DNA from: a virus
Taxonomy: Duplodnaviria; Caudoviricetes
Length of the DNA: 64,000 nt
IMG/VR virus record: IMGVR_UViG_3300020050_010385
Span: 31,132-95,131 of that record
Reading direction: 5' to 3' (one strand)
Shown: positions 7,149 through 62,509 of the stretch, piece by piece
Layout: every line of letters starts with the position of its first letter
Position numbering within the stretch: position 1 is the first letter of the stretch
Position numbers and translations under genes: made by a program
Notes under the pieces: model-generated
The model's input: only the letters and a program-made list of their open reading frames with translations
The model's database searches: none
Told to the model about the DNA's origin: nothing

Positions 7149-8089
7149 TGACACTTATAACTAGTACCAATAAATTCCAAAGAACTTACACAATGCAAAT
7201 CCAAGGCATTGATGGTACTATTTATAATGTGGGTTCGGAAAATGGTGGTTCTCTTTTGACCTTAGAGTTTTCCGTTAAACGTGACGTGTTAGCTTCGGCT
7301 CAATCGGGAACTTTCCGCATTCGAAATCTTAACCCCAGTGTTCGATCCCAGATCTATAAAGACTGGTTTGACACCGGAAGGTTACCAACGGTGATCGTTA
7401 AAGCTGGATACCTCGGGACGCCTTTGTCCACTATTTTCAACGGGATTGCTTTGTCGATAACCTCGTATCGTGAAGAAGGTGGAACGGACTTTATTACCGA
7501 AATCGAAGGGCAAGATTACTCTTTGGTAATGTCCAATAGCTTTTCGAACTGGACAATTGGGGACAACAACAACCCTGTAAATCAGGAAGACGTGATTAAT
7601 CGTTTGATTGGAGATCTCAAACTTACTGCCCAGAAGTACGGTAAGACTCTCGCTACGGGAATAGTGGGGGGTTTTCTTGCAAACCGTTACACGTATACGG
7701 CTAACGATTACACCTGGAATTTGTTGCAAGTTGAGACCAATCGCCTTTCATACATTGACAATGGTAAAATTTATTGCCTCCCAAACAACTATGTTTTTGA
7801 AGGCGACGTTAACTTAGTTTCTTCCGAGACGGGTTTGTTGGGAAGTCCTCGTAGATACCAGAGCAATTTGATTGCAGAAATGATCTTTGAACCGTCAATT
7901 ATTCCTGGACAACAAATTTACTTAGACACCAATCTTGACAAATCGTTTAATAGTTCTAAGAACGGAACCTATAAAGTTACGGGCGTGCAGCATGCGGGAG
8001 TTATCTCTTCAGCTGTGAGCGGTAAATGTAAAACCTTAATAACCATGCAAATTATAGGGACTCCGTTTGTAGCGAGTTTTGGTTTATGA
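7148..8089 (+). CDS. Baseplate hub protein, copy A
   Basis: IRNL, KAGY, IFNG, TGLLGSP, P.IIPG, G.YKV..V.H.G motifs. Confidence 0.78.
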   Translation: MTLITSTNKFQRTYTMQIQGIDGTIYNVGSENGGSLLTLEFSVKRDVLASAQSGTFRIRNLNPSVRSQIYKDWFDTGRLPTVIVKAGYLGTPLSTIFNGIALSITSYREEGGTDFITEIEGQDYSLVMSNSFSNWTIGDNNNPVNQEDVINRLIGDLKLTAQKYGKTLATGIVGGFLANRYTYTANDYTWNLLQVETNRLSYIDNGKIYCLPNNYVFEGDVNLVSSETGLLGSPRRYQSNLIAEMIFEPSIIPGQQIYLDTNLDKSFNSSKNGTYKVTGVQHAGVISSAVSGKCKTLITMQIIGTPFVASFGL

Positions 8090-9114
8090 CAGAAAATACT
8101 TCAAACAATAGGTACATAGTTCCCGACCTAGCTGAGTTTCTTTCCAGAAGAATGGACGATATTTCAGCTAGGATCAATTGCTTAACTATGGGTACAATCA
8201 TTTCTTTTAATGCCACAAACCAAACTGCGGTCGTATCTGTCAATTTTCAAAAAGTGATTAAAGGCGTTAATCCTACTGACAATATTGGTGAAGTTTCGGA
8301 CATGGTTGTGAATTATCCCACACTGGTGAATGTACCCGTAGCATTTATGAACGGTGGAGGAGGTTATTTAACTTTCCCGATTATTCCAGGTGACTCATGT
8401 ATTCTTCTTTTCTGTGACCGAGACATGGACATTTGGTTTGCAACGGGGCAAGTAACCCCTCCGAATTCTGAAAGATTGCATGACATTAATGACGCTGTTG
8501 CTTTAATTGGAATCCGTAATTTACAGCAATCTCTAAGTGGATATTCTACTACGAAAGTTCAATTGAACTTTCCTACGGGGTTGGTAACGGTAACCGACCT
8601 AACTGGAGAAAGACTAAATCAGGCGGGATTCCTCCAACCGTACGCTGGTTCCAGTGCACCTTCGGGTTGGTTATTATGCTACGGTCAAGCCATCAGCCGT
8701 ACCACTTACGCTACTCTGTTTGCTGTGATCGGGACTACGTACGGTTCAGGGGACGGTTCCACAACCTTTAATGTACCCGATTTACGTGGTAGAACTGTTG
8801 CAGGGTTGGATAACATGGGCGGTTCGAACGCAAATGTTTTGACCAATACTTACAACCCGAACCGTAACACTCTGGGAGGAAATACTGGAGAAGAAGCTCA
8901 TCAGCTTTCTATTCCAGAAATGCCAGAACATGACCATCCGGGCAGTACTGCTAATACTCGGAATGATAGTTCAGCTGCTGGTGCTGCTGATGCGGCGGTT
9001 CAAGCTCAATTAATTAATAGTCTTATAAATGTTACCGTAGCTCCTCAGGGTAGTGACACACCTCACCAGAACGTTCAACCTACAAAGATGGTTAATTGGA
9101 TTATAAAAATATGA
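8086..9114 (+). CDS. Baseplate spike (Gp138 N-terminal type) fused to a tail-collar domain, copy A
   Basis: N-half LVNVPV..GGG.LTFPI.PGD.C.LLFCDRD.D.W...R.HD.NDA; C-half APSGWLLCYGQAISRTTYA.LFA.IGTTYG.GDGSTTFNVPDLRGR. Confidence 0.85.
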   Translation: MTENTSNNRYIVPDLAEFLSRRMDDISARINCLTMGTIISFNATNQTAVVSVNFQKVIKGVNPTDNIGEVSDMVVNYPTLVNVPVAFMNGGGGYLTFPIIPGDSCILLFCDRDMDIWFATGQVTPPNSERLHDINDAVALIGIRNLQQSLSGYSTTKVQLNFPTGLVTVTDLTGERLNQAGFLQPYAGSSAPSGWLLCYGQAISRTTYATLFAVIGTTYGSGDGSTTFNVPDLRGRTVAGLDNMGGSNANVLTNTYNPNRNTLGGNTGEEAHQLSIPEMPEHDHPGSTANTRNDSSAAGAADAAVQAQLINSLINVTVAPQGSDTPHQNVQPTKMVNWIIKI

Positions 9115-9476
9115 TCATTAGAGCCTTAGACATAAATCACGATTGGACATTTGGTAAAGGTAAAGAGAATTACCTCTCAGGGCAGTTAGCAATTGCTGAA
9201 AATATCCAAACTCGGATATTGTCTTTTTTCGGTAATTGTTTTTTCGACATGTCGGCAGGGATTAATTGGTTCACACTTTTAGGGATACCGAATAGTGAAC
9301 AGCAAATCATGCTGAATGTGCGAGCAGTAATCCTTCAGTCTTACGGAGTTGTGAGCGTAAATAGCATCAGCTTAAACTTGGTTAATTCAAATCGCAGAGC
9401 AACTTTGACTTACAGTATAAACACAATCTACACTCAAAATTATACTCAAACCTTACAGGTGGTACAAGATGTCTAA
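9111..9476 (+). CDS. Baseplate wedge/sheath initiator (gp25-like), copy A
   Basis: MIIRALD...DWTFG, F.G.CFFD...GI.W motifs. Confidence 0.7.
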   Translation: MIIRALDINHDWTFGKGKENYLSGQLAIAENIQTRILSFFGNCFFDMSAGINWFTLLGIPNSEQQIMLNVRAVILQSYGVVSVNSISLNLVNSNRRATLTYSINTIYTQNYTQTLQVVQDV

Positions 9477-10644
9477 TCAGATAACAGCAGCAGGGATTCA
9501 AATCGAAACTTTCGAACAAATCGTATCGAATATCATTAATGGGACTTCCGATACCCCTGGTTTGATTCAGATTTACGGAGCCGATATTAATGTGGCTTCA
9601 AATTCCCCGGACGGGCAAGCGGTCAACATTTACGCTCTTTCAAAAATGGACATTTTGAATCTCTGCGTAGCTATCTACAATTCCATGGATCCTGATCAAG
9701 CTGTGGGGGTGTCCTTAGACCGCATTGCTCAAATTTCGGGGTTGACACGTAAACCTGGAACTTACACACAGGTAGACATTGACGTGGTAACCAACCAAAG
9801 CGTTAACCTAAATGGACTGGATACTTCCACCCCGTTTACTATCCAGGATTCCAACGGTAATTTATTCTACCTTATTACCTCAGCTTCTCTTTCTTCTGGA
9901 ACCACTAGCCTCAGTTTTCAATCTGCAGCAATCGGCTTTATCCAGGTATTAGCAAATACCTTAACAACTGCGGTAACGATCGTAGCAGGGGTAGTGAGTG
10001 TAAACAATCCAGCAGTTCCTACGCAGGTGGGTACGAATCAAGAGACCGACGCTAATTTCAGATTACGTCGACAAGCCTCCACTGCTTTCCCAGCACAGAG
10101 TTCTTTGAAGGCTCTTTTCTCAGGATTAAATTCTCTGGTAGGGGTAACCGAAGCGGTCGTATACGAGAACACTACCAACGCAGTTGACGCTGACGGGATC
10201 CCTGCGCACGGCATTTGGGTGGTAATGGACGGGGGAACAAACGCTGAAATCGGGGAAACCATTTATACTTATCGAAACTTGGGTATCCCGATGAAAGGGG
10301 CTGAGACTTACGTAGTGACTCAGATAGACAGTTCTACAATTACCATGCAATACGACAACGTGGTAAATGAAGACCTATACCTCGAAGCTACCTTGGTATC
10401 TTTGACAGGTTCAGCTATCGATCGTACCGCTATCAAAGCGGCTTTAGTAACGAATTATGTTTTAGGTATCTATGATACAGCTGACGTTTCAACTCTGAAT
10501 CAGCAAATTCGTGCTATAAATCCTGACGTAGTTTGTTCTGGTTTAGGGGTTTCCGATGACGGGATTGCTTGGGTAAATCTTTTAAGTCCTTCATCCAAAC
10601 AGAATAAATTTGTTCTATCAACCGCTAGAATAACCTTGAGCTAA
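9469..10644 (+). CDS. Baseplate J-like wedge protein, copy A
   Basis: SPDGQ, DPDQA.G..LD, G...ETDA.FR.R, VYEN.T...DADGIPAH.I motifs. Confidence 0.88.
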   Translation: MSNQITAAGIQIETFEQIVSNIINGTSDTPGLIQIYGADINVASNSPDGQAVNIYALSKMDILNLCVAIYNSMDPDQAVGVSLDRIAQISGLTRKPGTYTQVDIDVVTNQSVNLNGLDTSTPFTIQDSNGNLFYLITSASLSSGTTSLSFQSAAIGFIQVLANTLTTAVTIVAGVVSVNNPAVPTQVGTNQETDANFRLRRQASTAFPAQSSLKALFSGLNSLVGVTEAVVYENTTNAVDADGIPAHGIWVVMDGGTNAEIGETIYTYRNLGIPMKGAETYVVTQIDSSTITMQYDNVVNEDLYLEATLVSLTGSAIDRTAIKAALVTNYVLGIYDTADVSTLNQQIRAINPDVVCSGLGVSDDGIAWVNLLSPSSKQNKFVLSTARITLS

Positions 10645-10648
10645 GTCT

Positions 10649-11251
10649 ATGACCTTAAGTGAAGCTTTAGATTACTACGCAAACCAGTTAATAATTCAGT
10701 ACGCTAAACTACCAAAAGCAGAAGATACGATAAAGTGCTTGGTAAACAACGCCGTGTGCGATGGATTGGTTTTTTCTCTCCAGGACGCTTTTAACTTAGA
10801 TACGGCTTCTGGAGAACAACTCACTATTCTTGGAAGAATTGTGGGAGTCCCTAGAGAAATCTTTGGTTTAGACTTGACACACGAGTTTTTCAACTTTACC
10901 AGGTATTCTGGAGTTCCTGCTAGTTTTGGATTCAATCGATTCAGTACTCCAAACGATACGTATTATATTTCAAGATGGCAAACCACAGCTTCTTATACGA
11001 CAACTGATTTTGAGTTACTAGCCTTAATTAAAATTAAAATTATCGCTAACAATAATTATACCTCTTTAAAAACAATTAAAGAAGCTTTGTACGAAATTTT
11101 TGAAGGAGCAATTGACGTGGTAGATAATTTAGATTATACCATAACTTACAATCTTCAAAATCCGTATCACAACGTGGGAACTATCTGTGACTTTTTAGAC
11201 AACATACTACCGAAACCGATGGGCGTAGGTATCAATATTATCAATGTATAG
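10649..11251 (+). CDS. Baseplate protein (DUF2612/gpI-like), copy A
   Basis: FNLDTASG.QL..LGRIVG..R and LPKPMGV motifs. Confidence 0.8.
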   Translation: MTLSEALDYYANQLIIQYAKLPKAEDTIKCLVNNAVCDGLVFSLQDAFNLDTASGEQLTILGRIVGVPREIFGLDLTHEFFNFTRYSGVPASFGFNRFSTPNDTYYISRWQTTASYTTTDFELLALIKIKIIANNNYTSLKTIKEALYEIFEGAIDVVDNLDYTITYNLQNPYHNVGTICDFLDNILPKPMGVGINIINV

Positions 11252-11260
11252 GAGACTTGA

Positions 11261-12106
11261 ATGGCAAAACTAACCAGGAAAACCTTACTACAATTTGGTA
11301 GCACAGTAAATGCTGGGTCAGAAATTGGTCAGTTTGGTTCTTACGCTGCCCCAATTTACACTGCTGACATTGCTACCCTCCAAGCAGGTACTGCGTGGCC
11401 ACGAGGGTGGGCGGCTGAAACTGTTGCAACAAATCGACCGTTCCTTGAAGACATGAACGCCATTGACTATGTGTACGGTTACATGCTTTCTTACATTTTG
11501 CAAATGGGCATCCCTGAGTATGATTCAGCAACGACCTATTATATTGACAGCTTTGTGCAGGTAGCTGGACAAATCTATCAATCCTTGGCCGACAACAATA
11601 CCGGGAATACTCCTTCTTCTTCTCCAGCAAGTTGGCAACCTGGAATCGGATCTAAGAATACTGAAACCGCTGGTGTGGTTAAAATGTTTGCTGGATCAAT
11701 TGCTCCTACGGGTTACTTGATATGTAACGGTGCCGCAGTTAGTAGAGCTACGTATGCGGCGTTGTTTGCTATTTGTGGTACAACTTACGGGGCTGGAGAC
11801 GGTGCAACAACTTTCAATATTCCCGACTTGAGAGGGAATGTAGCAGTAGGGTATAAGGCGTCTGATTCTGATTTTGGTACGTTGGGCGCGAACCCTGGTG
11901 CAAAGACACATACTTTGATTACTGCAGAAATGCCAGCACACAGTCACTCTACCTGGTATGCTCATAACTCTGGAAGCGGTAGTGAATCTCCGGCAGGTGG
12001 TAGTAATACCAATAGACAAGACGCTTCTACTTCAACCGAAGGTGGTGGAGGAGCACACAATAATATCCAACCTTCATTGGTTCTTAATTACATCATCAAA
12101 ACTTAA
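11261..12106 (+). CDS. Tail fibre with small aromatic (CBM-like) module and tail-collar domain, copy A
   Basis: Q.GIPEYDS.TTY...W module; APTGYLICNGAAVSRATYAALFAICGTTYGAGDG.TTFNIPDLRG; HSH motif; HNNIQP.LVLNYIIK end. Confidence 0.85.
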   Translation: MAKLTRKTLLQFGSTVNAGSEIGQFGSYAAPIYTADIATLQAGTAWPRGWAAETVATNRPFLEDMNAIDYVYGYMLSYILQMGIPEYDSATTYYIDSFVQVAGQIYQSLADNNTGNTPSSSPASWQPGIGSKNTETAGVVKMFAGSIAPTGYLICNGAAVSRATYAALFAICGTTYGAGDGATTFNIPDLRGNVAVGYKASDSDFGTLGANPGAKTHTLITAEMPAHSHSTWYAHNSGSGSESPAGGSNTNRQDASTSTEGGGGAHNNIQPSLVLNYIIKT

Positions 12107-12115
12107 GGATCTTAT

Positions 12116-12487
12116 ATGCAGAATGATTGTGAAGTAGCTATCGATATCGTAAGAGGAACAGATTTTTATTTACCAATTATTTATATGGTAAGTGTAGAAT
12201 CGATCGGACTAAAATACCCAGTTAATATTACTGGGTACAGCGTGCAAATGCAGGTAAGACCAACGGTGGGTTCTACGGGTACACCACTAGTGAATATCTC
12301 TACGGCACTGGGTACAATTTTAATCGATGGACCAAGTGGAAAAATAGAATTACTAATCCCCAAAAGCGTAACCACTACTCTTCCAGTAGGAAGCTGGAGT
12401 TATGATGTTTTAGTAACAAACGTAAGTGGGTGGACAGAACAAATTATCTTTGGGACGGCTAATGTTATTGAAAGGACTACTAAATGA
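12116..12487 (+). CDS. Ig-like fibre adaptor protein, copy A
   Basis: I.RG.DF, P.NITGY...MQVR, G.I.L.I, YD motif pattern. Confidence 0.6.
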   Translation: MQNDCEVAIDIVRGTDFYLPIIYMVSVESIGLKYPVNITGYSVQMQVRPTVGSTGTPLVNISTALGTILIDGPSGKIELLIPKSVTTTLPVGSWSYDVLVTNVSGWTEQIIFGTANVIERTTK

Positions 12488-12999
12488 ATCCAGGAATAGT
12501 GCTACTACAACAGCAGAAAGTAATTGAGGCACTATCTCAATTCCCTATTTTACCCCAGTATCGAAACTTCTCGATTGTCGCTACTTCAGACGGACAAACG
12601 GATTTTGAACTTGACGACTACCCGGTATTGACGGGGATTATTTCCGTGAATATAAATGGGATAGCTCAGGATCCTTTAAACGGGGATTATACTATTTTGG
12701 ACAGTACCCTGACTGTAAGCCCTGGAAGAGACATCGGAGACAAGGTGGCTGGTTTTTATCAAGTCATGACTCCGGTGGTGGGGGCTAATGTTCTTAATTT
12801 TGCCTCGTATTATGAGTTGGTCGGCACAGCTGACAAGACCGTGTTCACGCTTTCTTTCCAGCCTAACCCTATTGTATATGTAGCAGTGAACGGAGTCGTA
12901 CAAGACAACTTAGACTATACAATAAACGGTTACACATTGACCTTGAACGTAGGATTAGATATAAACGATAAACTATATGTAGTCGGAATTAACAGCTAA
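12484..12999 (+). CDS. Fibre-associated protein with two internal beta repeats, copy A
   Basis: Two repeats of A..GQT.F.L...V.(I/V)NG..Q...DYTI....LT. Confidence 0.6.
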
Positions 13000-13009
13000 G
13001 GAGAAACAA

Positions 13010-15379
13010 ATGAAAAAATGGTTTTTAAGTTTACTTGCAATCCTACTTTCGTCGTCTTTAGCTTTTGCTGATACGAAAGTCCCGGCCAAGGACGTTACAG
13101 TTAATACGTCTACTTTCGGAGACAACATACCTGTCGACGCAAACACGGTTCAAAAGGCTCTTCAGGCTGTCAACGATGCCACCTTTGGTGGTACCCCAGC
13201 AGGTTCTACTGGGCAGTTTCAGTATAATAACGGAGGGATCTTTGCTGCCGGTAACATGCTTTACACGGACGGCACAAACATCGGGATTGGTAATGCTTCT
13301 CCTACCCAGAAACTGGACGTTACTGGAACTGTAAAAGCCACCACGTTCAGTGGTAGTGGTTCAGGGTTAACAGGTATTCCATTAAGTGGTGCGGTTACTG
13401 GTAATCTTCCCGTGGGTAATTTAAACAGCGGTACTTCCGCAAGTTCTTCAACTTTCTGGAGGGGGGATGGGACGTGGGCTGCACCTACAAGTAGCGGCGG
13501 AGCTATTGCTACGTATACGGTATGTGCCTCTAATAAAACCGCTACGTATAAGTGCGATTATACGGCGGACGGAACTGCGGATCAGGTAGAGATTAATGCT
13601 GCTATAGTTGCAGCTAATGCTCTTACGTACGGAGGAAAAGTATTTTTAACTGAAGGAAGTTTTAATATTTCTCAAAGTATAAAACCACTACCTAATGTGT
13701 GGGTTCAAGGCTCAGGTATGTTAGGTCAAACAACGTTGTTTGGTCTACAATCGCTAAATAATACGGGTATCTTTCAAAATTGGGATGGAACTGCTGGTTC
13801 TCCAACAAATAATATCCGTATAAGCGATATGAAAATGGTAGGAACCGATATGCGAAATGCTACGTATGGGGTATCTCAAAAAGGAATAAGTATAATTTAT
13901 TTAAACAATAGTAAAATTGATCATACTTGGATATATGATACTCCAGCTACGTGCTTAGCAACCGATCACGCTACTCGAACAGTTATTGACAATAATATTG
14001 TTGAAAGTTGTGGTAGTGCTGCTAGATCGATTGGCGGTCACGGTGTACCGCTGGGAAGTAATGGTATCGGATTTGGAACGAACGGTACTGGCATAGATGA
14101 AAATGTTATTATAACAAATAACCAGGCTGTAAATGTCTTATACGATGCAGGAATTCTTTTAGAAGAACAAACGGGATCTACTTCTCCGAATTATAATTTT
14201 GTTATTGCTAATAATACCACTTCAGGTTGTTTTGATGGCATTCGTATTAGTGGGACTTCCGGAGTAATTATTGCAAATAACACCGCAGTTAATAATAGTA
14301 ATGATGGAATAGTAGTTACTACGGGCACCTTTGTTAATCTTACGGTAAATGATTTCACAGTTACAGGAAACATAGTATTAAATAATACCCTTAATGGTGT
14401 TGAATTCCGTGGGTATTCAACAGATACAAATTCTCGAATAATCTTTACTAATAACATTGTGAGGAATAACGGAGGCTACGGTGTTAGAACAATGTTCAAT
14501 CGATCCCTCATCAGTGGAAATATTATTTCAGCCAACGGGTTAGAAGGCATCTACGCAGATTTAACCATTCTTCGGAACGTGGATAATGTAAATATTTCCA
14601 ATAATACCATTACCAACAATGGTACATTAGGAACAGCAGGAAGAAATGACGGGATTAATATCGTTATACCTGCTGGTAAAGCTATAAATGCTTTACAGAT
14701 TAAGAGCAATATCATCACCGATACTCAAACCACCCCTACTCAAAGATATGGTATTACTATTGACAACGCAGGATTACTATCTAACTTTGCTATGGATAAT
14801 AATTACTTAGCAGACAACAGTACAGGGGAGACTAATTTTACAAAGGTTCCTTTAGATCGAGTTATCTTAGCTGGCGGAGAAGGTATCTCTACTCTTGCTG
14901 GAGGGCTAAACGTTCCTACAACTGCGGATATTCAATCAGGGGGTTCAAGAATAAATTACAATTTAATTGGCTACGGTACAGGAACCGCTTACACACTTAC
15001 TAACGCTTCAGCATTTGTTGACATGGGTACCAGTGACCCCACCATGGTAATCGATAAAGCTGGAACATACACCCTTTCAGGGAGTGCTCAACTAAAGTAT
15101 AATGCGGTTACTTACGCGGCTGATCAGACAGCAAACTGTGTACTTTATCGTACCAACAATACCGCAGGAGCAGTTCCCTTAGCTACAAGTACTGTTAACC
15201 TAAGAATTATTGCTTCACCTATTACCGATAATGCTGGCACTATTACCTTACCCCCTGTTCTATACACCACAACAAATACAAGTGATCAAGTTCAGTTATG
15301 GTGTTCAGTATCAGCTACTCCAGGAGCAGGTAGTGTACAGGTTATTTCCGCTTGGGTAAGAGCACATAGAGAATTCTAA
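13010..15379 (+). CDS. Signal-peptide-bearing tailspike/adhesin with right-handed parallel beta-helix (allele A)
   Basis: [20 protein letters not shown]|DT leader; [13 protein letters not shown] motif; [14 protein letters not shown]...GGKVFL..G.F pectate-lyase-like start; many I.NN repeats. Confidence 0.75.
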
Positions 15380-15410
15380 AAACTTATAAAAATATAAAGG
15401 AGATTATGCA

Positions 15411-16667
15411 ATGAAAAAATTAATATTACTACTACTACTAATCTTTGGGTTCTGCAGTAACGCTTTTGCTACAAAATTCATGTACAATTTCGGGTCAAAT
15501 ACTAATAATTCAGCTGACGTATCCTACTGGTATATCGACGGTATCGGAACATCTTCGGCTTTCGAAGCCCAAAGATTTATGCCTGTAGCTTTACCTGTAA
15601 AACTTAGTAACCTATCGGTAGTAACAACAATTGCTCCCACAGCAGGACAGGGAGTTATTTATACAGTATTCGTTAATGGTGTTGCAACAGCTTTAACGTG
15701 TACTATTCCTGATCTGCTTCTAGTATGTACTGATACTACGCATACCCTCTATCTGAATAAAAATGACAATGTTTCTATCTACGTTACAAAATCAGGGACT
15801 CCAACCTATGGTCCATTTGTAGGATATGTACAGGCTGAAATTGAAAATAATAACTATGACTCATTGGTGGGAAGTGGTGCAAATAATACGTCAGTGAGTA
15901 ATGCGGTAACTAATTACCTTGGGTTATTTACTGAGACCCCCTCAACAAGTGAAGCAGCCCACCAATTCGTCATTCCCTTAGATGGATATCTGTCTAAATT
16001 ATACGTTCAGCTCTCAGGAATTCCTGGAGCAGGAAAAAGCTATACTATTACTGTCAGAAAAAATGGAGCCGATACTGCTTTAACTATCCCAGTTGCAGAT
16101 AGTGCAACAACTAATGAAGATTTATTTAATAGAATAGCAGTATCTGCTGGTGATCTTATTGCGGTATCAGTGGTACCTTCAGGAACCCCCACAGCTAGAA
16201 TTGTATCATTTTCTGCTGTCTATACTTCTTCAATCTCGGGGTATTTTATTAAAGGTATGAACACGGGTTCTACCTCACTCTCCCCATCTTCCACTTACTA
16301 TACTGCCTTTGTAGGTACCATAGCCCCCACTACGTCAGGTCTAACGCAGAATGAACTTATCCCACCGAATCTTTACTTAAAAAGAATGTACGCCTATTTA
16401 GCCACTGCTCCTGACACGGGAGTAGGGACTCAAAGTTACGCAATTACCCTCAGAGATTCAACAGCTTCCAGTAACACCACAGCAACGTGTACTATATCCG
16501 ATATCGCTCAATCTTGTTTATTCAAATACCCAGTACCTTTACCTGCTACCGATATGCGAGCATCTTATAGTGCAGTTCCTTCTGGTACACCGGCAGCGTC
16601 AACCTTAACTGTAGGTGGAGCATTTACTCTAATCCCTCCTCAAGCATCTAATATTAAAGGTTACTAA
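15411..16667 (+). CDS. Signal-peptide-bearing beta-rich repeat protein (allele A)
   Basis: MKKLILLLLLIFGFCSNAFA|T; about three repeats of Y..TV..NG..TALTCTI......C.D; homolog of 62538..63806. Confidence 0.7.
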   Translation: MKKLILLLLLIFGFCSNAFATKFMYNFGSNTNNSADVSYWYIDGIGTSSAFEAQRFMPVALPVKLSNLSVVTTIAPTAGQGVIYTVFVNGVATALTCTIPDLLLVCTDTTHTLYLNKNDNVSIYVTKSGTPTYGPFVGYVQAEIENNNYDSLVGSGANNTSVSNAVTNYLGLFTETPSTSEAAHQFVIPLDGYLSKLYVQLSGIPGAGKSYTITVRKNGADTALTIPVADSATTNEDLFNRIAVSAGDLIAVSVVPSGTPTARIVSFSAVYTSSISGYFIKGMNTGSTSLSPSSTYYTAFVGTIAPTTSGLTQNELIPPNLYLKRMYAYLATAPDTGVGTQSYAITLRDSTASSNTTATCTISDIAQSCLFKYPVPLPATDMRASYSAVPSGTPAASTLTVGGAFTLIPPQASNIKGY

Positions 16668-16668
16668 T

Positions 16669-16845
16669 ATGATAGAAAACGTAGTCTTGACTATTCCTCC
16701 AGAAAAATACAAGTTCATGGTAAAGACCCTAGAATCCTTCAAGTCAGGAATACGTTTATTAAACCTAAATGCACTTTATAAACAAAGCCTAATAAAAGAA
16801 CTCCACACCATAGAGAGCATCATTAAAACTAATAGGAGTCAGTGA
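16669..16845 (+). CDS. Small hypothetical protein (58 aa; not in ORF track)
   Basis: MIENVVLTIPPEKYKF...TNRSQ*; the differences I found from the copy at 63808..63984 are all synonymous. Confidence 0.7.
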   Translation: MIENVVLTIPPEKYKFMVKTLESFKSGIRLLNLNALYKQSLIKELHTIESIIKTNRSQ

Positions 16846-17186
16846 TGGAATTCACTCAAGAATTTAAAGATGAAATGCTAAAGGAGATTAAAAATTTCAG
16901 AGTCCTACTCGTAGGTGACGGCACACTAGAAAATACTGGATTGATCGGTGTTGTAAAAGATCACGACAATTACGTCCGTGACGGTAAGAAGTGGCGGTGG
17001 GCGATTATTGGATTGATCGGATCCTTTGCCACGTACGTTGTCGGAGGGTTCATACTATACGGCAAAATGGAAGAACGAATTGAGTGGCACGACAAATATA
17101 TTAAATACTTTATTGACGAGAGAATGAATGCAAAAACACCAGTGCAACCCAATTACTATGACCCCCGAACAACTAAAAAACATTAA
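16845..17186 (+). CDS. Single-TM membrane protein of the lysis region
   Basis: TM segment WAIIGLIGSFATYVVGGFILY; AGGAG RBS. Confidence 0.6.
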   Translation: MEFTQEFKDEMLKEIKNFRVLLVGDGTLENTGLIGVVKDHDNYVRDGKKWRWAIIGLIGSFATYVVGGFILYGKMEERIEWHDKYIKYFIDERMNAKTPVQPNYYDPRTTKKH

Positions 17187-17325
17187 GGACTGTGTGAGGA
17201 AGATTGTGATACTGGAGAAAGCTATACAATTAAATAAACTCGAATTAGCCATTACTCTCATTGATCAGCTTAGGTTTGATTTAGGTCTACTAAATGAAGA
17301 AAGAAAACAAAGGAGACACGAATGA
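17128..17325 (+). CDS. Hypothetical protein (start uncertain)
   Basis: ORF fills the gap and couples (ATGA) to the next gene. Confidence 0.45.
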   Translation: MQKHQCNPITMTPEQLKNIKDCVRKIVILEKAIQLNKLELAITLIDQLRFDLGLLNEERKQRRHE

Positions 17326-17534
17326 ACTTGATTATCAAACTACTCAATCTTTTAAACGGCTACAAGACTTACCTAACAGCAACAGCTGCTGTTCTAACGG
17401 CTATCGTTGCCTACCTTAATCACGCTATCACAATCGAGGAGTTGCTCACAGCAGTCTTTACCGCTATCCAAAGTATGAACATTCGACACGCCATTACTAC
17501 AACCGTATCCAAAGCAACTGGAGAAAAACTATGA
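17322..17534 (+). CDS. Putative holin (70 aa, two hydrophobic segments)
   Basis: LNGYKTY motif, two TM-like stretches, charged C-terminus, AAGGAG RBS. Confidence 0.6.
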   Translation: MNLIIKLLNLLNGYKTYLTATAAVLTAIVAYLNHAITIEELLTAVFTAIQSMNIRHAITTTVSKATGEKL

Positions 17535-17704
17535 GGGATTTCATTCTAGTGATTTTAATGATGGGTATTATCGGCTGCACTTTTTCCAGACAAATGGAAG
17601 TCACGGCAACGGGTACGAATGTTGAGAGCATTTACGGTAGCGGTAGCTTGAACACTGGGTATAAATCTAACACAACCACGGGGTTCTTAAATGGAAGAAA
17701 TTAA
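17531..17704 (+). CDS. Small lipoprotein, spanin candidate (57 aa; not in ORF track)
   Basis: MRDFILVILMMGIIG|C lipobox; GGAGA RBS; overlaps the stop of the putative holin. Confidence 0.6.
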   Translation: MRDFILVILMMGIIGCTFSRQMEVTATGTNVESIYGSGSLNTGYKSNTTTGFLNGRN

Positions 17705-18251
17705 AGAGGGAAAAGTGTATACCGATCCTAGGAGATTCACCGAAGCTGATTTACCTTTAATTGTTTTAGCTGATGACCTAAGGGGGTTCATTGGTTACGC
17801 CATCAAGTCCCATACCAAAGGAAATTACAACCACGCCTTCATTATGCATCGTCCAGGTTTCTGTGTTTCCCAGGACTTCGGGGGGTTCAAAGAACACCCG
17901 ATCGATGTCTATCTTACGGAAGGGATGATGCTGAAATTCTGGAAAGTAAGAAACTTGACTCTGGTAGAAAAAAGTATTATCCTCTTGAACATTAAAAAGA
18001 GACTGGGAAGAAAGCGGTGGCAAAATAGCTATGACTTCCTAGGGGTTCTTGTTGGCCAGGTAACCCGACTCCGTTGGATCCAGAATCCTTTTCAAATGTT
18101 TTGCAGTGAGCAGGTAAGATGGGATTTCCTTAAACCCTTAGACCGAGCAATTAAGTTCATACGTCAGCAACCAAGTCCAGCTGACCTGGATGCTAGTTTC
18201 AAGCCAAACCCCAACGTGTTTATTCCCGCAGGGTATTGGTGGAGTGACTAA
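17691..18251 (+). CDS. Permuted papain-like NlpC/P60 (YiiX/YaeF-type) enzyme
   Basis: YNHAFI (His) precedes YDF and FCSEQV (Cys), the permuted order. Confidence 0.75.
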   Translation: MEEIKEGKVYTDPRRFTEADLPLIVLADDLRGFIGYAIKSHTKGNYNHAFIMHRPGFCVSQDFGGFKEHPIDVYLTEGMMLKFWKVRNLTLVEKSIILLNIKKRLGRKRWQNSYDFLGVLVGQVTRLRWIQNPFQMFCSEQVRWDFLKPLDRAIKFIRQQPSPADLDASFKPNPNVFIPAGYWWSD

Positions 18252-18296: not shown

Positions 18297-18340
18297 GAAT
18301 AGCCTTCGACCTTGAGCAAGTTGGAGGCTATTTCTTTTTA
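18297..18340. terminator. Intrinsic terminator between convergent late (+) and early (-) units
   Basis: AATAGCCTTCGAC-loop-GTTGGAGGCTATT followed by TCTTTTT. Confidence 0.7.
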
Positions 18341-18718
18341 CTCAGTAATTTTATCTAAAGCCCGGAGTAGTTTATGCCTTAAAACAATCGGTAGATCTTT
18401 ATCCAGTAGACATCTCAATTCCAGTTCATTAAACGAGAGTGTAAAACGTTTTTTACGCTCTGATACAAATCCCGTTCTATGCAAGGTTGGTAATTTAAAA
18501 CGAGGGATTCCATCACTGTCGTCGTAACCATAAGTTTTACCAATAACCGCATATAGCTTAGGAAACATACTAACCTGTAATAATTGTCCACAACACTTTA
18601 CCCAACCAGTGGTATCGATACTATTGGGGAACCTCTGTAATGCACCAACTGGCCAAAGCTTACTTTGTGCCCCTATGGTATCGTTATATCTTATGTACCA
18701 ATCCCATTTATTTTCCAT
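18338..18718 (-). CDS. Stand-alone degenerate tail-collar-domain protein
   Basis: PVGA..F.....GWVKCCGQ.L....FPKLYAVIGKTYG.......FKLP.L; GAGGAGG RBS before ATG 18718. Confidence 0.7.
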   Translation of the reverse strand: MENKWDWYIRYNDTIGAQSKLWPVGALQRFPNSIDTTGWVKCCGQLLQVSMFPKLYAVIGKTYGYDDSDGIPRFKLPTLHRTGFVSERKKRFTLSFNELELRCLLDKDLPIVLRHKLLRALDKITE

Positions 18719-18923
18719 CTTGAACCTCCTCTTCGTTTGACCACTCATTATATCTTTCAATAAATATTTGTTCTCTCTTTACAGCCGCAGATCCTTCTTG
18801 GATTTTCTTAATTAAAAAAGCAATCAAGCAATAGATCCCGTAGATTAACCAGAATAATAACCCTAAAGCTATGCCTATAAGAATTGCTAAATTCACAGTT
18901 AGTGTTGGATTTGACTCAGGCAC
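18708..18923 (-). CDS. Small membrane protein
   Basis: Long hydrophobic segment; GTG start with AAGGA RBS. Confidence 0.55.
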   Translation of the reverse strand: MPESNPTLTVNLAILIGIALGLLFWLIYGIYCLIAFLIKKIQEGSAAVKREQIFIERYNEWSNEEEVQDGK

Positions 18924-19057: not shown

Positions 19058-19249
19058 CTATTCTACCTTCTCTGAGTAATACATTCCCATACAAAAGGTC
19101 GTAACAATAGCTATAAATACGGTAGCTATGTAAGGAACGAAATACCAGGGAGTTTCTTCCAATGTAAGCTTACTGCCGATGTAAAAACCTACCCACAGTA
19201 AAATTAAACTTGCTGAGTATGAAATAATAGCTTTGGCACTGTTACTCAT
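19058..19249 (-). CDS. Small two-TM membrane protein
   Basis: Two hydrophobic segments. Confidence 0.6.
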   Translation of the reverse strand: MSNSAKAIISYSASLILLWVGFYIGSKLTLEETPWYFVPYIATVFIAIVTTFCMGMYYSEKVE

Positions 19250-19401
19250 TTTCCACTCTCTTTCTCTAACTTCTCAGCTAGGTGTTTTTTAAGACGCTCT
19301 ATCTCCTTTAAAATTTTTTCTTTACTCCAGTGGTTTTGTATAAATCCATCACAGGTTCTTCCACATTCATCCCAACAATAAGTACACTCTCGTAGGCTCA
19401 T

Positions 19402-19623
19402 TTATTTACCTCTCCTTGGTAACCCCATCATTTTAATTTTCATCTCTGAACAAGTTTCATTACTTTCTTTGAATAGTTTTTTATCCACCAAGAACGATTT
19501 CATAATCTCATTCTCAATATCTATTATCGTATTTTCAATGGCCTTTTTAATTCTTTTCTCAATAGCTTTTCTTTGGCGACTATTTACTTTTACAAACTCA
19601 AAAACTATGGTGGTATTATTCAC
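19402..19623 (-). CDS. Hypothetical protein
   Basis: ORF coupled to the upstream gene. Confidence 0.5.
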   Translation of the reverse strand: MNNTTIVFEFVKVNSRQRKAIEKRIKKAIENTIIDIENEIMKSFLVDKKLFKESNETCSEMKIKMMGLPRRGK

Positions 19624-21936: not shown

Positions 21937-22509
21937 TTAAGGATGCCACAAAGTTACAGTGTTTGAACCAACATGAACCATTGCCGCGACCGCCGAGCTT
22001 GACTTTAGCTTCTCTTGCGCTTCTTTGATCATCTGTAAGGCGTAGTCAAATTTCTTTTCTTTAACTGCAATTCTTACATTGTTTCTTTCTTTTCTGGAAA
22101 AGAACTCAGTATCCTTCCCATCACGTGTCACCTGCTCGGAAAACAATGCCATGTCAAGGTGGAATAGATTAGGTTCTGCAATATTTTTTGAGAGTTCGTA
22201 CAAAAGCCATTCGTAATAAACTGCACTGGATGAACTTCCCTTTAAAACTTCATTTGCTTTTGCGAGATACTCATCGAGCTTCTCTTTACTCAAACCCTTC
22301 TGGCTTAACTCTTTTGCTTCCCGAATCTCTTCAGCAATCTCTTGCATTTCTTTATCGTTCTTGAGTTTGATAATACTTGTTACCTCAGATAGAGTTGAAA
22401 AATTACTTCCAGCACAAGCTTCCTTAGCGTGTAGACAAAATAGAACCATTAATACCAGTGCTATAAAGATATATACCACCATCCCTATCATGGCTAATTT
22501 TACTTTCAT
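21937..22509 (-). CDS. Exported/membrane helical protein
   Basis: N-terminal hydrophobic leader; AGGAGG RBS. Confidence 0.6.
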   Translation of the reverse strand: MKVKLAMIGMVVYIFIALVLMVLFCLHAKEACAGSNFSTLSEVTSIIKLKNDKEMQEIAEEIREAKELSQKGLSKEKLDEYLAKANEVLKGSSSSAVYYEWLLYELSKNIAEPNLFHLDMALFSEQVTRDGKDTEFFSRKERNNVRIAVKEKKFDYALQMIKEAQEKLKSSSAVAAMVHVGSNTVTLWHP

Positions 22510-33192: not shown

Positions 33193-33633
33193 TTATTCTC
33201 CTTTATTTCGTTTATAATCTAATTTTCTTAATTGCATCCTTATTTTTCTTGCTTTAGTTTTATCACCGCATTTGAAAGCTTCCTCCTTTTCTTTTAGTAG
33301 TTTTTTTACTTCATCAGTAACATTTACTCCTAGTTGAATAGCCTTCTTAAGTGATGTTACTTTTTCTTTACCGTGAGTGGGTATTTGACTGTAGATTTCT
33401 ATTTCTTCTTGTAGATCTTTTTTATTCTTATAGGATTGTTCATCTGGACTACGTTCTGGTATTTCATTTAAGTGCCTAATATGTGGCCTCTTATCTAATG
33501 GCATTCTTTTAATATCTTCTAGGGTTTGAATACTTTCCATGATTGCGAATAACTTACCATCTACTAATACGAAGGTAGGTCTACCGTCTTTATGAAAGCT
33601 TCTTGTTGTTTTTCTTTCGATTCTTTTTTCCAT
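33193..33633 (-). CDS. Hypothetical protein
   Basis: ORF; shares an A..IR.QLR...Y motif with 32904..33188. Confidence 0.6.
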   Translation of the reverse strand: MEKRIERKTTRSFHKDGRPTFVLVDGKLFAIMESIQTLEDIKRMPLDKRPHIRHLNEIPERSPDEQSYKNKKDLQEEIEIYSQIPTHGKEKVTSLKKAIQLGVNVTDEVKKLLKEKEEAFKCGDKTKARKIRMQLRKLDYKRNKGE

Positions 33634-34042
33634 GAGATACCTTTTTCTTTTCTTTATAGAAAATATGATCTTTTATTTTATAGGTTTCTACCATGGCCTT
33701 AGCCCAGTAGGGTTCTCCGAAGGAAGTAATATTTTCCCAGTGGGTTGCTCCTTTTGTTGGGTCCTCTTTTAGGGAATTCTTTACTGCCTTTTTTGCTAAG
33801 TCCCATACCCACTTAGGTTCTCTATTAGGTAAAGAACTTGTAAATCCATATACTCCTTTTAAAGTTCCTCTATTTCTTATTGCACAGGCTACAGCTAACA
33901 TTCCATTGTAGCCTTGATTACTAGCTTCTCCTACAATGGCCCTAGCTAAGTCTTCATCACTAATTTGATTAGCCTTTACTTCTTTATCTGAGAAAATAAA
34001 GGTCAACATGGAAATAATAATTATGGTTCTTAGTGAATTCAT
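33590..34042 (-). CDS. Cell-wall hydrolase (SleB/Hydrolase_2-like) with N-terminal signal
   Basis: LARAIVGEA..Q...GMLAVA..IRNR; DPTKGATH; I.DHIFY. Confidence 0.85.
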   Translation of the reverse strand: MNSLRTIIIISMLTFIFSDKEVKANQISDEDLARAIVGEASNQGYNGMLAVACAIRNRGTLKGVYGFTSSLPNREPKWVWDLAKKAVKNSLKEDPTKGATHWENITSFGEPYWAKAMVETYKIKDHIFYKEKKKVSHGKKNRKKNNKKLS

Positions 34043-58807: not shown

Positions 58808-59179
58808 ATGCAGAATAATTGTGAAGTAGCTATCGATATCGTAAGAGGAACAGATTTTTATTTACCAATTATTTATATGGTAAGTGTAGAATCGATCGGA
58901 CTAAAATATCCAGTTAATATCACTGGGTACAGTGTGCAAATGCAGGTAAGACCAACGGTGGGTTCTACGGGTACACCACTAGTGAATATTTCTACGGCAC
59001 TGGGTACAATTTTAATTGATGGACCAAATGGAAAAATAGAATTATTAATCCCTAAAAGCGTAACCACTACTCTTCCAGTAGGAAGCTGGAGTTATGATGT
59101 TTTAGTAACAAACGTAAGTGGGTGGACAGAACAAATTATTTTCGGGACGGCTAATGTTATTGAAAGGACTACTAAATGA
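58808..59179 (+). CDS. Ig-like fibre adaptor, copy B
   Basis: Two aa differences from 12116..12487. Confidence 0.6.
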   Translation: MQNNCEVAIDIVRGTDFYLPIIYMVSVESIGLKYPVNITGYSVQMQVRPTVGSTGTPLVNISTALGTILIDGPNGKIELLIPKSVTTTLPVGSWSYDVLVTNVSGWTEQIIFGTANVIERTTK

Positions 59180-59691
59180 ATCCAGGAATAGTGCTACTAC
59201 AACAGCAGAAAGTAATTGAGGCACTATCTCAATTTCCCATTCTACCCCAGTATCGAAACTTCTCGATTGTCGCTACTTCAGACGGACAAACGGATTTTGA
59301 ACTTGACGACTATCCGGTATTGACTGGAATTATTTCCGTGAACATAAATGGGATAGCTCAGGATCCTTTAAACGGAGATTACACTATTTTGGACAGTACC
59401 CTGACTGTAAGTCCTGGAAGAGACATCGGAGACAAGGTGGCTGGTTTTTATCAAGTCATGACTCCGGTGGTGGGGGCTAATGTTCTTAATTTTGCCTCGT
59501 ACTATGAATTGGTCGGCACAGCTAGCAAGACCGTATTCACACTTTCTTTCCAGCCTAACCCTATTGTGTACGTAGCAGTGAACGGAGTTGTACAAGACAA
59601 CTTAGACTATACAATAAATGGTTACACATTAACCTTGAACGTAGGATTAGATATAAACGATAAACTATATGTAGTCGGAATTAACAGCTAA
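59176..59691 (+). CDS. Fibre-associated two-repeat protein, copy B
   Basis: One aa difference from 12484..12999. Confidence 0.6.
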   Translation: MNPGIVLLQQQKVIEALSQFPILPQYRNFSIVATSDGQTDFELDDYPVLTGIISVNINGIAQDPLNGDYTILDSTLTVSPGRDIGDKVAGFYQVMTPVVGANVLNFASYYELVGTASKTVFTLSFQPNPIVYVAVNGVVQDNLDYTINGYTLTLNVGLDINDKLYVVGINS

Positions 59692-59701: not shown

Positions 59702-62509
59702 ATGAAAAAATGGTTTTTAAGTTTACTTGCAATCCTACTTTCGTCATCTTTAGCTTTTGCTGATACGAGAGTCCCAGCCAAGGACGTGACAGTTAATACG
59801 TCTACCTTCGGAGACAATATACCTGTCAACGCAAACACAGTCCAAAAGGCTCTTCAGGCTGTCAACGATGCCACCTTTGGTGGTACCCCAGCAGGTTCTA
59901 CTGGGCAGTTTCAGTATAATAACGGAGGGATCTTTGCTGGCGGTAACATGCTTTACACGGACGGTACAAACATCGGGATTGGTAATGCTTCCCCAACCCA
60001 GAAACTGGACGTTACTGGAACTGTGAAAGCCACCACGTTTAGTGGTAGTGGTTCGGGATTAACCTCCATTCCTGCAGCGCAACTTTCTGGACAGGTGCCC
60101 TTAGCTAACGGTGGTACTGGTCTTTCTAGTGCTGCTGATGACGCTACTGTGGTATCTAATGGTACAGCATTTCAGGCTACGATACTTCCTTCGTGTACTG
60201 ACTCTGGAGGGAACCATTTGAACTATGATGCTACTACGAATTCATTTAGTTGTGGAACTAGTAGTGGAGGAGGTAGTCAGGTTACTGGAGCCTTCACACA
60301 GCTGACATCTTGTCCAGCTGACATTGTAGCTTATATGGCAGCATTACCAGAAAGTACAAGAGTTCAATTTCCTGCGGGATGTTCATATACTCTTACTACC
60401 GCTTCAACGGTTGAAATTCCTAGCGGTGTGTGGGTAGACTTTGCTAATACTCTATTTAATAGAACAGCTACGGCTGCAGCTATTATTACAGCTACTACCA
60501 AAGACGTAACTAAACCTATGTATATTGGTAATGTCCGTTGCACGGGAGCCTTTGCTACTTCGTGTATAAGTATTAATCAAAATGCTGGTACGGTGGGTAG
60601 CGAAAATGCTTTCATATTAAGGAATATTCAGTTTGATTTTACTCCCGATGCCTCCATGACAACTGTTTACGGTTTTGTTATTAACGATTCAGGTTACGTA
60701 ATCGATGGAGTACGTGGGAATATTTTAACTTCTTCAGCAACAACAAGCGCATGGGGTATTCGTACTCCGATGAATTCAACTGCAGAAGCAGACATGTCGG
60801 GGTCAATCAATGATTGGAACGTTAGAGTTGATTGCCAATCCTACGCACCGACTTTCTGTAGAGGTCTTGATGTTGCCTACCAGAACGCATCCGCAGGCGG
60901 AAGTTTATTTAATACGTATGCAAAGGTAAGTAATTTTTATAGCTATGCTCACTCTGGTGGTGCGACCGGAACAGGTGAAGCCTGTAAGGTTACCAATGAC
61001 TCAGGGCATGGAACAGTAAACGAAACCTGGTGGTCTAACGGGGTATGTGATGGGGTATCTTCTGACTTCCGTGACGGTTCTGGATTTGGTGATCCAGTAA
61101 TAGCCCATATTGATAACGTGGAATTCACGAACGGTAAATACTCCCTCAAATCAACGGGTACTTATACTCTAAAGGGATCTTCTGGAAAGACAAGTAACTT
61201 TTGGACAATTAGTTCTAGTGCAACTACTTCAATAGACTCACAGAGCTACATAGCTCCTTTTATAGCCTATGTTGTTGCTACCAACGATCGAGTTTACTTC
61301 CCACCATCAATGCAATTCAATGCGGCTCTCTCTATTACTAAGTCGGTACACCTGATTGGAAGCGGTACTGATGGATGTACTCACATAGCTACTTACGGAG
61401 GAACAAACACACAGCTTTTCAATGTTACAGCAGACAACGTTTCTATTGAAAATTTCTGCTTAGATCTTATCGGAGGTTGGAGCGGAATCCTGGTTAACGG
61501 TACGGGGGGAACCAGCCTTGCTAGTGTTAATCTCAGGAATATTAAAATTAATAAACCAACTGCAAGCGGTAACAGTACGGGAATTATATACAATGACGCT
61601 GGAGGATCAATCTATAATCCAGTAATCAACATAGCTTGTGCCTCTGGAACCTGTCTCGGTATTTCTAGTACACAAGCTTCTACTTTAGATGCGGTCTCCA
61701 CTCTGAGTGTGTATAGTCCGAATATTATCATTCCAGCGACTACCGGGGTATCTAAGGCGTTTGAATTTACGGATACCGGAGCTACGTTTGCTTCTACCTT
61801 CAACGTGTACGGAGGATACTATCGTACCAGTAAATCCACAGGATCAGCCTACGGTATTTACGCTAGTGGTCCACTGATTACGGCTAACCAATACGGTCTC
61901 ATGGGAGCAGCTGATACCATAAACACGTACGCAGTAAATGACGCCGTCATCAATAGCAATTCTTCTCCGTTCATTTCTCCACTTACTATCGGAGGATCTG
62001 GAATTTCTGCCTCAGGGTTCTCTTCATTCGCAGGAGGAATTAATCTACCCAGTGGTCAAGAATACGCTTCAAACGGAGTACAACTTAATTACACTATCTC
62101 GGCCTACGCTGCAGGTACCGTGTACTCATTAACTAACGCTTCAGCAGCAGTAACCTTTGGGACTACTTCTCCAGTAATAACCATTGATCAACCTGGAACG
62201 TATCGATTAAACGCTAGTGCACAGCTTAAGTATAATGCTGCTACATTTGCAGCACCGCAAACAGCCACGTGTCTTCTCTATCGTACGAACAATACCGCTG
62301 GAGCATTAACCAATGCCACACGTACGGTGGACTTAAGAATACTAAGTGCAATCACGGATAGTGCAGGCTTAGTTGCTATTCCAGAAATTCAGTATATCAC
62401 AACGAATTACAACGATCAAATCCAACTCTATTGCGGAATGTCAGCGGCTACTGGAGGAGGAACGGTGGACGTTGTTTCAGCTAATGTTATTGCTAAACTT
62501 GACTATTAA
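59702..62509 (+). CDS. Signal-peptide-bearing tailspike/adhesin (allele B), probably two beta-helix segments
   Basis: First about 120 aa near-identical to 13010..15379; centre unrelated and Cys-rich; last about 130 aa homologous (Y.LTNASA...[29 protein letters not shown]). Confidence 0.75.
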   Translation: MKKWFLSLLAILLSSSLAFADTRVPAKDVTVNTSTFGDNIPVNANTVQKALQAVNDATFGGTPAGSTGQFQYNNGGIFAGGNMLYTDGTNIGIGNASPTQKLDVTGTVKATTFSGSGSGLTSIPAAQLSGQVPLANGGTGLSSAADDATVVSNGTAFQATILPSCTDSGGNHLNYDATTNSFSCGTSSGGGSQVTGAFTQLTSCPADIVAYMAALPESTRVQFPAGCSYTLTTASTVEIPSGVWVDFANTLFNRTATAAAIITATTKDVTKPMYIGNVRCTGAFATSCISINQNAGTVGSENAFILRNIQFDFTPDASMTTVYGFVINDSGYVIDGVRGNILTSSATTSAWGIRTPMNSTAEADMSGSINDWNVRVDCQSYAPTFCRGLDVAYQNASAGGSLFNTYAKVSNFYSYAHSGGATGTGEACKVTNDSGHGTVNETWWSNGVCDGVSSDFRDGSGFGDPVIAHIDNVEFTNGKYSLKSTGTYTLKGSSGKTSNFWTISSSATTSIDSQSYIAPFIAYVVATNDRVYFPPSMQFNAALSITKSVHLIGSGTDGCTHIATYGGTNTQLFNVTADNVSIENFCLDLIGGWSGILVNGTGGTSLASVNLRNIKINKPTASGNSTGIIYNDAGGSIYNPVINIACASGTCLGISSTQASTLDAVSTLSVYSPNIIIPATTGVSKAFEFTDTGATFASTFNVYGGYYRTSKSTGSAYGIYASGPLITANQYGLMGAADTINTYAVNDAVINSNSSPFISPLTIGGSGISASGFSSFAGGINLPSGQEYASNGVQLNYTISAYAAGTVYSLTNASAAVTFGTTSPVITIDQPGTYRLNASAQLKYNAATFAAPQTATCLLYRTNNTAGALTNATRTVDLRILSAITDSAGLVAIPEIQYITTNYNDQIQLYCGMSAATGGGTVDVVSANVIAKLDY

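Follow-up and report, generated by a model that had tools for sequence, protein, structure and literature searches.

Predicted Sec leaders on the distal fibre-module proteins of an uncultured dwarf myovirus, and a possible split tailspike

In the tailed phages of the textbooks, the whole virion is built in the cytoplasm. Among podoviruses and myoviruses, the tailspikes of P22, Sf6, HK620, Dettilon and CBA120 (tailspike proteins, TSPs) have a right-handed β-helix, a conserved N-terminal module and an exchanged distal part, and are encoded at the end of the tail module. A virion adhesin that carries a Sec leader and is folded with disulfide bonds in the periplasm is known from filamentous phage, namely pIII of M13. 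Here, four large proteins of 789, 418, 935 and 422 residues are described, each of which begins with a predicted Sec leader. They are encoded in the fibre regions of a 64,000-nucleotide stretch (hereafter the window) of the IMG/VR virus record IMGVR_UViG_3300020050_010385, which is assigned to the Caudoviricetes. The window is the last 64 kb of one 95,131-bp contig, so that positions 1-64000 correspond to contig positions 31132-95131.

Use of the host Sec pathway before lysis has been described for exported endolysins (e.g., Lys44 of fOg44) and for signal-arrest-release (SAR) endolysins, in a review that contains no exported fibre (PMC6116005). Signal peptides have also been reported on capsid, spanin and unknown genes of Porphyromonas phages, in a study whose main text does not contain the term 'tail fiber' (Matrishin et al., PMC10367356). 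Literature searches for an exported tail fibre of a tailed phage returned exported endolysins, the leader-bearing Porphyromonas phage genes and the bacterial tailspike-like protein WceF, and no such fibre. Among cellular systems, the mosaic adhesive trimer (MAT) fibres of Bdellovibrio bacteriovorus carry a signal peptide, a conserved N-terminal domain of ~130 residues and swappable tips (Caulton et al., 2024; PMC10769870).

The contig consists of two related phage genomes of ~47 kb each, arranged in tandem, head to tail. The end of each tail module comprises, in order, a gene for a 123-residue protein, a gene for a 171-residue protein, a large fibre gene and a gene for a protein of ~420 residues. 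The 789- and 418-residue proteins belong to the first genome, and only these two are encoded in the span singled out by the initial annotation (13010-16667). The 935- and 422-residue proteins are their counterparts in the second genome, within the same window (Table 1).

Direct reading combined with a simple hydrophobicity rule revealed the same organisation in all four N-termini: an n-region that contains two lysines, then a hydrophobic core, 10-14 residues long and free of charges, and finally a small-x-small site (AFA, AFA, AHA). None of the four leaders contains a twin-arginine (Tat) motif or a lipobox; the cysteine in the leader of the 418-residue protein is preceded by FGF, which does not form one. 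An AAGGAGA ribosome site lies 6-9 nucleotides before each of the four ATGs, and the 789-residue gene starts 10 nucleotides past the upstream stop codon; the leaders are therefore translated. A crude leader scan of 163 non-overlapping open reading frames of the 95 kb contig flagged the four genes and five others, and none of these five encodes a head, tail or baseplate protein. The proposal of the initial annotation, that all four large genes start with basic, hydrophobic leaders ending in a small-x-small site, is thus confirmed by direct reading, ribosome sites and scan alike. It had also raised the possibility of real starts downstream of the leaders, and no internal start with a ribosome site that would give a leaderless isoform was found in the four genes. 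Separately, three early-region proteins have leader-like or membrane-anchor N-termini, one of them possibly belonging to a lipoprotein (window 33590-34042 and 21937-22509, - strand; contig 19089-19532, - strand).

Comparison with related proteins makes Sec export the best-supported step of the reading developed here, and we consider it likely. Six distinct proteins carry the mature N-terminal module of the fibre, and all six possess a leader. In four orthologous fibres that align in register, identity is 26-53% in the leader and 58-95% over the next 38 residues; in one pair, it is 37% in the leader versus 95% in the mature N-terminus. Turnover of the leader with a retained mature N-terminus is the pattern expected of a cleaved signal peptide. 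The 418-residue protein has more than 167 relatives of ~400 residues, of which about a third carry a leader, while the remainder begin directly with the first strand. In family members of 360-470 residues, two or more C-x6-12-C pairs are present in 24 of 30 leader-bearing versus 4 of 57 leaderless proteins (Fisher p 5e-12, not corrected for kinship), and the pairs occupy the same hairpin of each repeat. Several leader-bearing members have a methionine directly after the cut site, aligned with the start of leaderless relatives; therefore, leaders were added upstream of an older start.

Neighbouring fibre genes agree in leader status in all eight phage loci read. Leaders are present on 3/3 neighbouring fibre-module genes in L011, 3/3 in L013, 2/2 in L007 and 2/2 in each of the two modules of the window, and in L009, L010 and L015 neither the family member nor any of its neighbours has a leader. 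As judged from these gene neighbourhoods, the presence or absence of a leader characterises the distal module as a whole. L011 and L013 represent two other phage lineages, in each of which three consecutive genes at the end of the module carry leaders and are the only large fibre candidates seen. In L007, a syntenic relative, the second fibre-module gene (11127-12494) encodes an unrelated leader-bearing protein of 455 residues with a polysaccharide deacetylase domain (PF01522, E 2e-6). Export with oxidative folding, as put forward in the initial annotation, is thus well supported by leader turnover, by covariation of leaders with cysteine pairs and by the agreement between neighbours. Furthermore, leaderless relatives of the 418-residue protein hold the same position as last gene of the tail module, which makes a virion role the parsimonious reading of this family.

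The body of the 789-residue fibre resembles tailspikes. An AlphaFold2 model with a mean predicted local distance difference test (pLDDT) of 82 comprises the leader as a separate N-terminal helix, a short helix, a region with widespread fibre motifs that was left unmodelled (residues 60-162), a β-helix (165-610) and a β-sandwich (640-787). In Foldseek searches, the β-helix matched the alginate epimerases AlgE4 and AlgE6, the tailspikes of Dettilon, HK620 and Sf6, and the lyase RbmB. On the strength of the model, the protein is a tailspike-like β-helix, and the β-helical body suggested by the initial annotation is borne out by a Pfam match as well (Table 1). A leader is present in 12 of the 13 nearest relatives of the β-helix among the matches listed; the remaining one seems to be cut short at the N-terminus. 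The C-terminal β-sandwich is a widespread end module, found in leader-bearing and leaderless proteins alike, and the NIGIG...KLDV region is common to more than 4000 proteins, which include both leaderless phage-type fibres and leader-bearing ones. The 789- and 935-residue fibres are 86% identical over residues 1-146 and 47% identical over the last ~210 residues, with unrelated middles. The 935-residue protein has no Pfam match, and none of the four proteins matched the PHROGs database. A tblastn search of 50,697 GenBank phages with the 789-residue protein gave partial matches only, and a scan of genome contigs gave one marginal match.

The 418-residue protein was modelled with higher scores (pLDDT 90.5; predicted template modelling score, pTM, 0.89) as a separate leader helix followed by three jelly rolls of the TNF/C1q type in one compact chain, with a hairpin cysteine pair in two of the three. 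The three-fold β-repeat anticipated for this protein is therefore confirmed in the model. Its best whole-chain Foldseek matches are engineered single-chain trimers of C1q, APRIL-BAFF and adiponectin (E 6e-10 to 1e-7). Aligned as a single domain with VIA-align, it matched the tail fibre of Agrobacterium phage 7-7-1 (Z 9.9, root mean square deviation (rmsd) 3.6, 125 residues aligned) and 4-1BBL (Z 9.2, rmsd 2.8, 114 aligned); C1q, BclA and uncultured Caudovirales proteins named as C1q-domain proteins also match. On this modelled fold, the protein represents a natural counterpart, on a single chain, of trimeric receptor-binding heads. Neither it nor the 422-residue homologue had a tblastn match among the 50,697 GenBank phages, and a viral-contig scan with the 418-residue protein returned nothing. 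XepA of PBSX, whose fold matches one domain (Z 8.7, rmsd 2.7, 100 aligned), was considered as a precedent for export and rejected because it is listed among non-classically secreted proteins (PMC1266369) and is a pentamer (PMC6834076).

The two genes upstream of the fibre encode leaderless proteins, which the initial annotation had taken for adaptors. The 123-residue protein belongs to phrog_1084, weakly matches the L-shaped tail fibre assembly family, and has LtfC-like and BppU_N as its nearest feature clusters, which is a weak lead; in related phages, its gene is always found directly upstream of the fibre. The 171-residue protein shows weak likeness to Phage_T7_tail (the N-terminal domain of the T7 tail fibre) and DUF4183 clusters and, at E 0.054, to the N-terminal part of a K1 depolymerase; a viral-contig scan with the protein and a metagenome scan with its alignment found nothing, although these collections, like the viral contigs scanned with the 418-residue protein, may lack the records of this phage itself. 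DNA identity between the two phage copies is ~80% in the gene of the 281-residue fibre further upstream, 93-100% over positions 11921-13360 and ~30% from 13361 onwards. The 93-100% block comprises both leaderless genes and the first 117 codons of the fibre; thus, the adaptor genes travel together with the leader and N-terminal module of the fibre, and the distal part is exchanged. By sequence, a co-inherited N-terminal block with a swapped distal part is what receptor-binding proteins attached to the virion show.

A complex of three copies of the 171-residue protein with three copies of fibre residues 21-145 was modelled with a score of 0.78 in 3/3 runs, compared with 0.00 for the best of three controls; contact agreement between runs was at least 92% and partner pLDDT at least 86. 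Among 78 solved complexes, 51 attain this score, as do 2 of 108 mismatched pairs; these counts hold only roughly here, given that the score was calibrated on single-chain pairs and not on 3+3 copies. In the model, fibre residues 21-25 and 27-28, the first after the predicted cut, contact residues 57-63, 66, 68, 78-80, 83, 86-87 and 89 of the 171-residue protein, of which residues 57-59 and 62-68 are invariant in three phages. The model supports, and does not show, docking of the post-cleavage N-terminus on the 171-residue protein. Together with the shared identity block, it strengthens the case for these neighbours as adaptors.

We tentatively favour a mechanism, rated at somewhat under even, in which export of the distal fibre module is followed, at lysis, by its attachment to virions. 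In this view, the uncultured phage, a dwarf myovirus, would encode its distal module for host recognition in the final two genes of the tail module. The products of both genes, synthesised with cleavable Sec leaders, would be translocated across the inner membrane, processed by signal peptidase I and folded in the periplasm, where their disulfide bonds would form. Processing would expose the conserved N-terminal peptide DTKVPAKD, which may dock on the leaderless 171-residue anchor. This anchor would stay with the baseplate in the cytoplasm, and virions would gain their distal fibres at lysis, because anchor and exported half would remain separated until the inner membrane is opened by the holin. 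The virion route is preferred because it gives one role to leader-bearing and leaderless relatives in the same position, and because of the co-inherited adaptor block and the modelled docking. A wider proposal may be drawn from it, namely a split tailspike with a leaderless anchor in the baseplate, a Sec-exported and oxidised fibre body and a single-chain TNF-like tip. Its parts would dock via the new N-terminus, and virions would become infectious only at lysis. Such a habit would recur in unrelated phage lineages and constitute a general second route of tail-fibre maturation; we put this wider proposal forward as a possibility rather than an expectation.

Several points weigh against addition of exported fibres at lysis. 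We know of no tailed phage that assembles with a cytoplasmic virion and periplasmic fibres, the compartments being kept apart until lysis. A separate leaderless fibre of 281 residues with a Collar domain is encoded in the phage and might suffice for adsorption. The closely spaced cysteine pairs noted in the initial annotation stand for three of the proteins, with 16 cysteines as eight sequential pairs in the 935-residue protein, eight cysteines in the 422-residue protein and four in the mature 418-residue protein; the exception is the 789-residue fibre, in which the number is odd (seven). Disulfides also occur in tailed-phage virions without export, as in phage Milano (PMC10811340). Furthermore, the tree of the 418-residue family requires 13 changes of leader state and offers only five well-supported contrasts; 2-3 of the five go the same way for leaders and cysteine pairs and 0-1 the opposite way, which is not significant. 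The association of cysteines with leaders is largely structured by clade and is suggestive, not proven. With regard to docking, blind pairs of neighbouring genes pass the complex test in 7 of 44 cases. Finally, the family is not confined to phages, as some members are secreted proteins in cellular settings (L014 and L016). In L016 (2741-6945), a three-jelly-roll member follows a run of leader- or membrane-anchored proteins beside glycolysis genes and an N_methyl pilin, and in L014 (7001-8257) one lies amid toxin-antitoxin genes, beside a protein of 2203 residues.

These cellular members also feature in the alternative that survives best, namely that the proteins are exported, never become bound to virions and act on the envelope of the infected cell, e.g., by cutting or modifying capsule, exopolysaccharide or O-antigen from within. 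Such activity could ease release, keep progeny off debris or, if the receptor is masked or destroyed, prevent superinfection. Exported phage proteins encoded beside receptor-binding genes are known, such as Llp of T5 and Cor. The domains found here are carbohydrate-active or carbohydrate-binding in kind, given the β-helix like that of alginate epimerases and lyases and the leader-bearing polysaccharide deacetylase of L007. In addition, the genes adjoin the probable lysis cassette, and the phage already has a leaderless fibre. However, the conserved N-terminal module, inherited together with two leaderless neighbours and joined to swapped distal parts, is the signature of a virion-attached fibre. 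The mature N-terminus is also predicted to dock on a phage protein of the cytoplasm, relatives without a leader are found at the same fibre position, and the leader-bearing genes of L011 and L013 are the only large fibre candidates seen in those lineages. Action on the envelope without virion attachment is thus a possible reading, which we would not call probable.

A third reading retains export and dispenses with cleavage. Serving as a signal anchor, the leader would keep the fibre attached to the inner membrane, its body in the periplasm, until membrane depolarisation at lysis frees it in the manner of SAR endolysins. The proximity of the lysis cassette would suit this arrangement, as would the established SAR-type release of phage endolysins (PMC6116005). 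Yet a good small-x-small site ends all of the leaders, and the modelled docking residues are the first after the cut site, which makes a lasting anchor improbable. The hydrophobic cores are moreover rich in leucine, isoleucine and phenylalanine, unlike SAR domains, which are rich in glycine, alanine and serine. Still less credible is the view that the N-termini are not used for export, the proteins folding in the cytoplasm like ordinary fibres and their cysteines being oxidised only after release. It accords with fibre assembly in every tailed phage studied to our knowledge and with the virion disulfides formed without export, and is contradicted by an n/h/c architecture kept while its sequence turns over, by the covariation of leaders with cysteine pairs, by their addition upstream of an older start in several lineages and by the agreement between neighbouring genes. 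Display on the surface of the infected cell, suggested in the initial annotation as another destination, finds no support, as no outer-membrane translocation domain was found and Pfam searches gave no type IX secretion system (T9SS) sorting domain or autotransporter barrel at E up to 5 (935- and 418-residue proteins) or up to 0.01 (789- and 422-residue proteins).

Table 1. Positions in the window of the fibre-module genes, their parts and neighbouring features.
Feature	Position	Strand	Remarks
789-residue fibre	13010-15379	+	First phage copy
Leader of 789-residue fibre, 20 codons, predicted cut after AFA	13010..13069	+	Identical in second copy at 59702-59761
Conserved mature N-terminal module: predicted docking peptide (residues 21-28), then helix and fibre motifs	13070..13360	+	Common to fibres of L006, L007 and three further proteins, all leader-bearing
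Right-handed β-helix, tailspike-like or polysaccharide-enzyme-like, residues about 165-610	13502..14839	+	Pfam PF13229, E 1.8e-17; AlphaFold2 pLDDT >90
C-terminal β-sandwich, residues about 640-789	14927..15379	+	47% identical to C-terminus of 935-residue protein
418-residue protein, predicted to be exported, 20-residue leader	15411-16667	+	First phage copy
935-residue fibre with 16 cysteines; leader and N-terminal module as in 789-residue fibre, C-terminal domain related, middle unrelated	59702-62509	+	Second copy
422-residue homologue of 418-residue protein (40% identity), different 22-residue leader, four cysteine pairs	62538-63806	+	Second copy
123-residue leaderless protein, candidate fibre adaptor	12116..12487	+	Second copy 58808-59179
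171-residue leaderless, cysteine-free protein, candidate virion-side anchor	12484..12999	+	Second copy 59176-59691
281-residue leaderless Collar-domain fibre	11261-12106
Wedge proteins	9469-11251
Probable lysis cassette, directly downstream of 418-residue gene	16669..18251	+	Read from sequences; putative function

The two tandem genomes share 73-88% DNA identity in their structural modules and have unrelated early regions. The contig spans two genome units, and a search for a terminal overlap found none. The same phage is present on Joint Genome Institute (JGI) metagenome contigs of 43.3, 43.9 and 129 kb, and the 129 kb contig also holds both fibre variants (789 and 935 residues). The 95 kb record may represent a genuine tandem or concatemer, or else an assembly path that ran through shared segments. 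Each genome encodes a small myovirus with a sheath, tube, hub, Gp138-like spike, sheath initiator, wedge proteins and the 281-residue fibre, together with a family A DNA polymerase; no tRNA genes were found. The Phage Tail Collar domain is present in three genes: that of the 281-residue fibre, that of the central spike (8086-9114), in which a Gp138-like N-domain is fused to Collar and Gp10_C-like parts, and that of a small protein of 126-140 residues just past the lysis genes (18338-18760, - strand). Members of the probable lysis cassette include a 114-residue protein with one membrane span, a 70-residue holin-like protein, a 57-residue lipoprotein (17531-17704) with the lipobox IIGC, which is a candidate o-spanin, and a 186-residue protein that has no Pfam family and may be the endolysin.

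Judged by the sheath protein, Bdellovibrio phage phi1422 (40% identity) is the nearest relative in culture. Its gp68 (L012 40429-42273), a leader-bearing protein of 614 residues, is encoded between the tail fibre gene gp67, which it directly follows, and genes for small membrane proteins, a position that matches that of the leader-bearing proteins here; no sequence similarity between gp68 and the four proteins could be detected. The 170-residue gp75 (L012 44298-44810) also bears a leader. Both go undiscussed in the phi1422 genome paper (PMC3391216).

If periplasmic maturation and joining at lysis are true, phage assembly would gain an extra step, the disulfide-rich fibres of environmental phages would be explained, and the Sec and Dsb functions of the host would become determinants of phage infectivity. 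Laboratory production of such fibres and depolymerases would also be affected, as they would misfold when expressed in the cytoplasm. If, on the other hand, the proteins are not part of the virion, they would represent a large unrecognised class of phage-encoded exported proteins that modify the envelope.

Each of the known systems shares part of this arrangement. Small outer-membrane lipoproteins of the T5 Llp and Cor type, which act in superinfection exclusion, carry a lipobox, and the proteins described here differ in their size (418-935 residues) and in having none. Exported endolysins make the same late use of host Sec; they are lysis enzymes, neither fibre-like nor parts of the virion. 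M13 pIII offers the combination of a Sec leader and periplasmic disulfides, in a filamentous phage that assembles at the membrane, and is related in neither sequence nor fold. The jelly roll of each domain of the 418-residue protein is shared with the heads of C1q, BclA, 4-1BBL and the Agrobacterium phage 7-7-1 fibre; in contrast to C1q/TNF trimers of three chains, the three domains are on one chain, there is no stalk or collagen region, and the protein has no Pfam C1q match. MAT fibres are the nearest cellular analogue, with a leader, a conserved N-terminal domain and variable tips in common, and the bearer of MATs is a Bdellovibrio, as is the host of phi1422. This likeness is one of architecture only: MATs are chromosomally encoded and lie on the surface of the predator cell, whereas the genes here are late genes of a phage, and the S74 chaperone domain considered in this comparison was not found by Pfam in their products. 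The tailspikes of podoviruses and myoviruses share with the 789-residue fibre all of the features listed at the outset; the fibre differs from them in its cleavable-looking Sec leader, its paired cysteines, an extra C-terminal β-sandwich and an anchor that is apparently a separate, leaderless protein of 171 residues. What this locus adds to these systems is the occurrence of export leaders in a myovirus with a leaderless baseplate, the predicted docking of a post-cleavage N-terminus on a leaderless partner, a block of adaptor genes and fibre N-terminus that appears to be inherited together, and a comparison of leaders with cysteine pairs within a single protein family.

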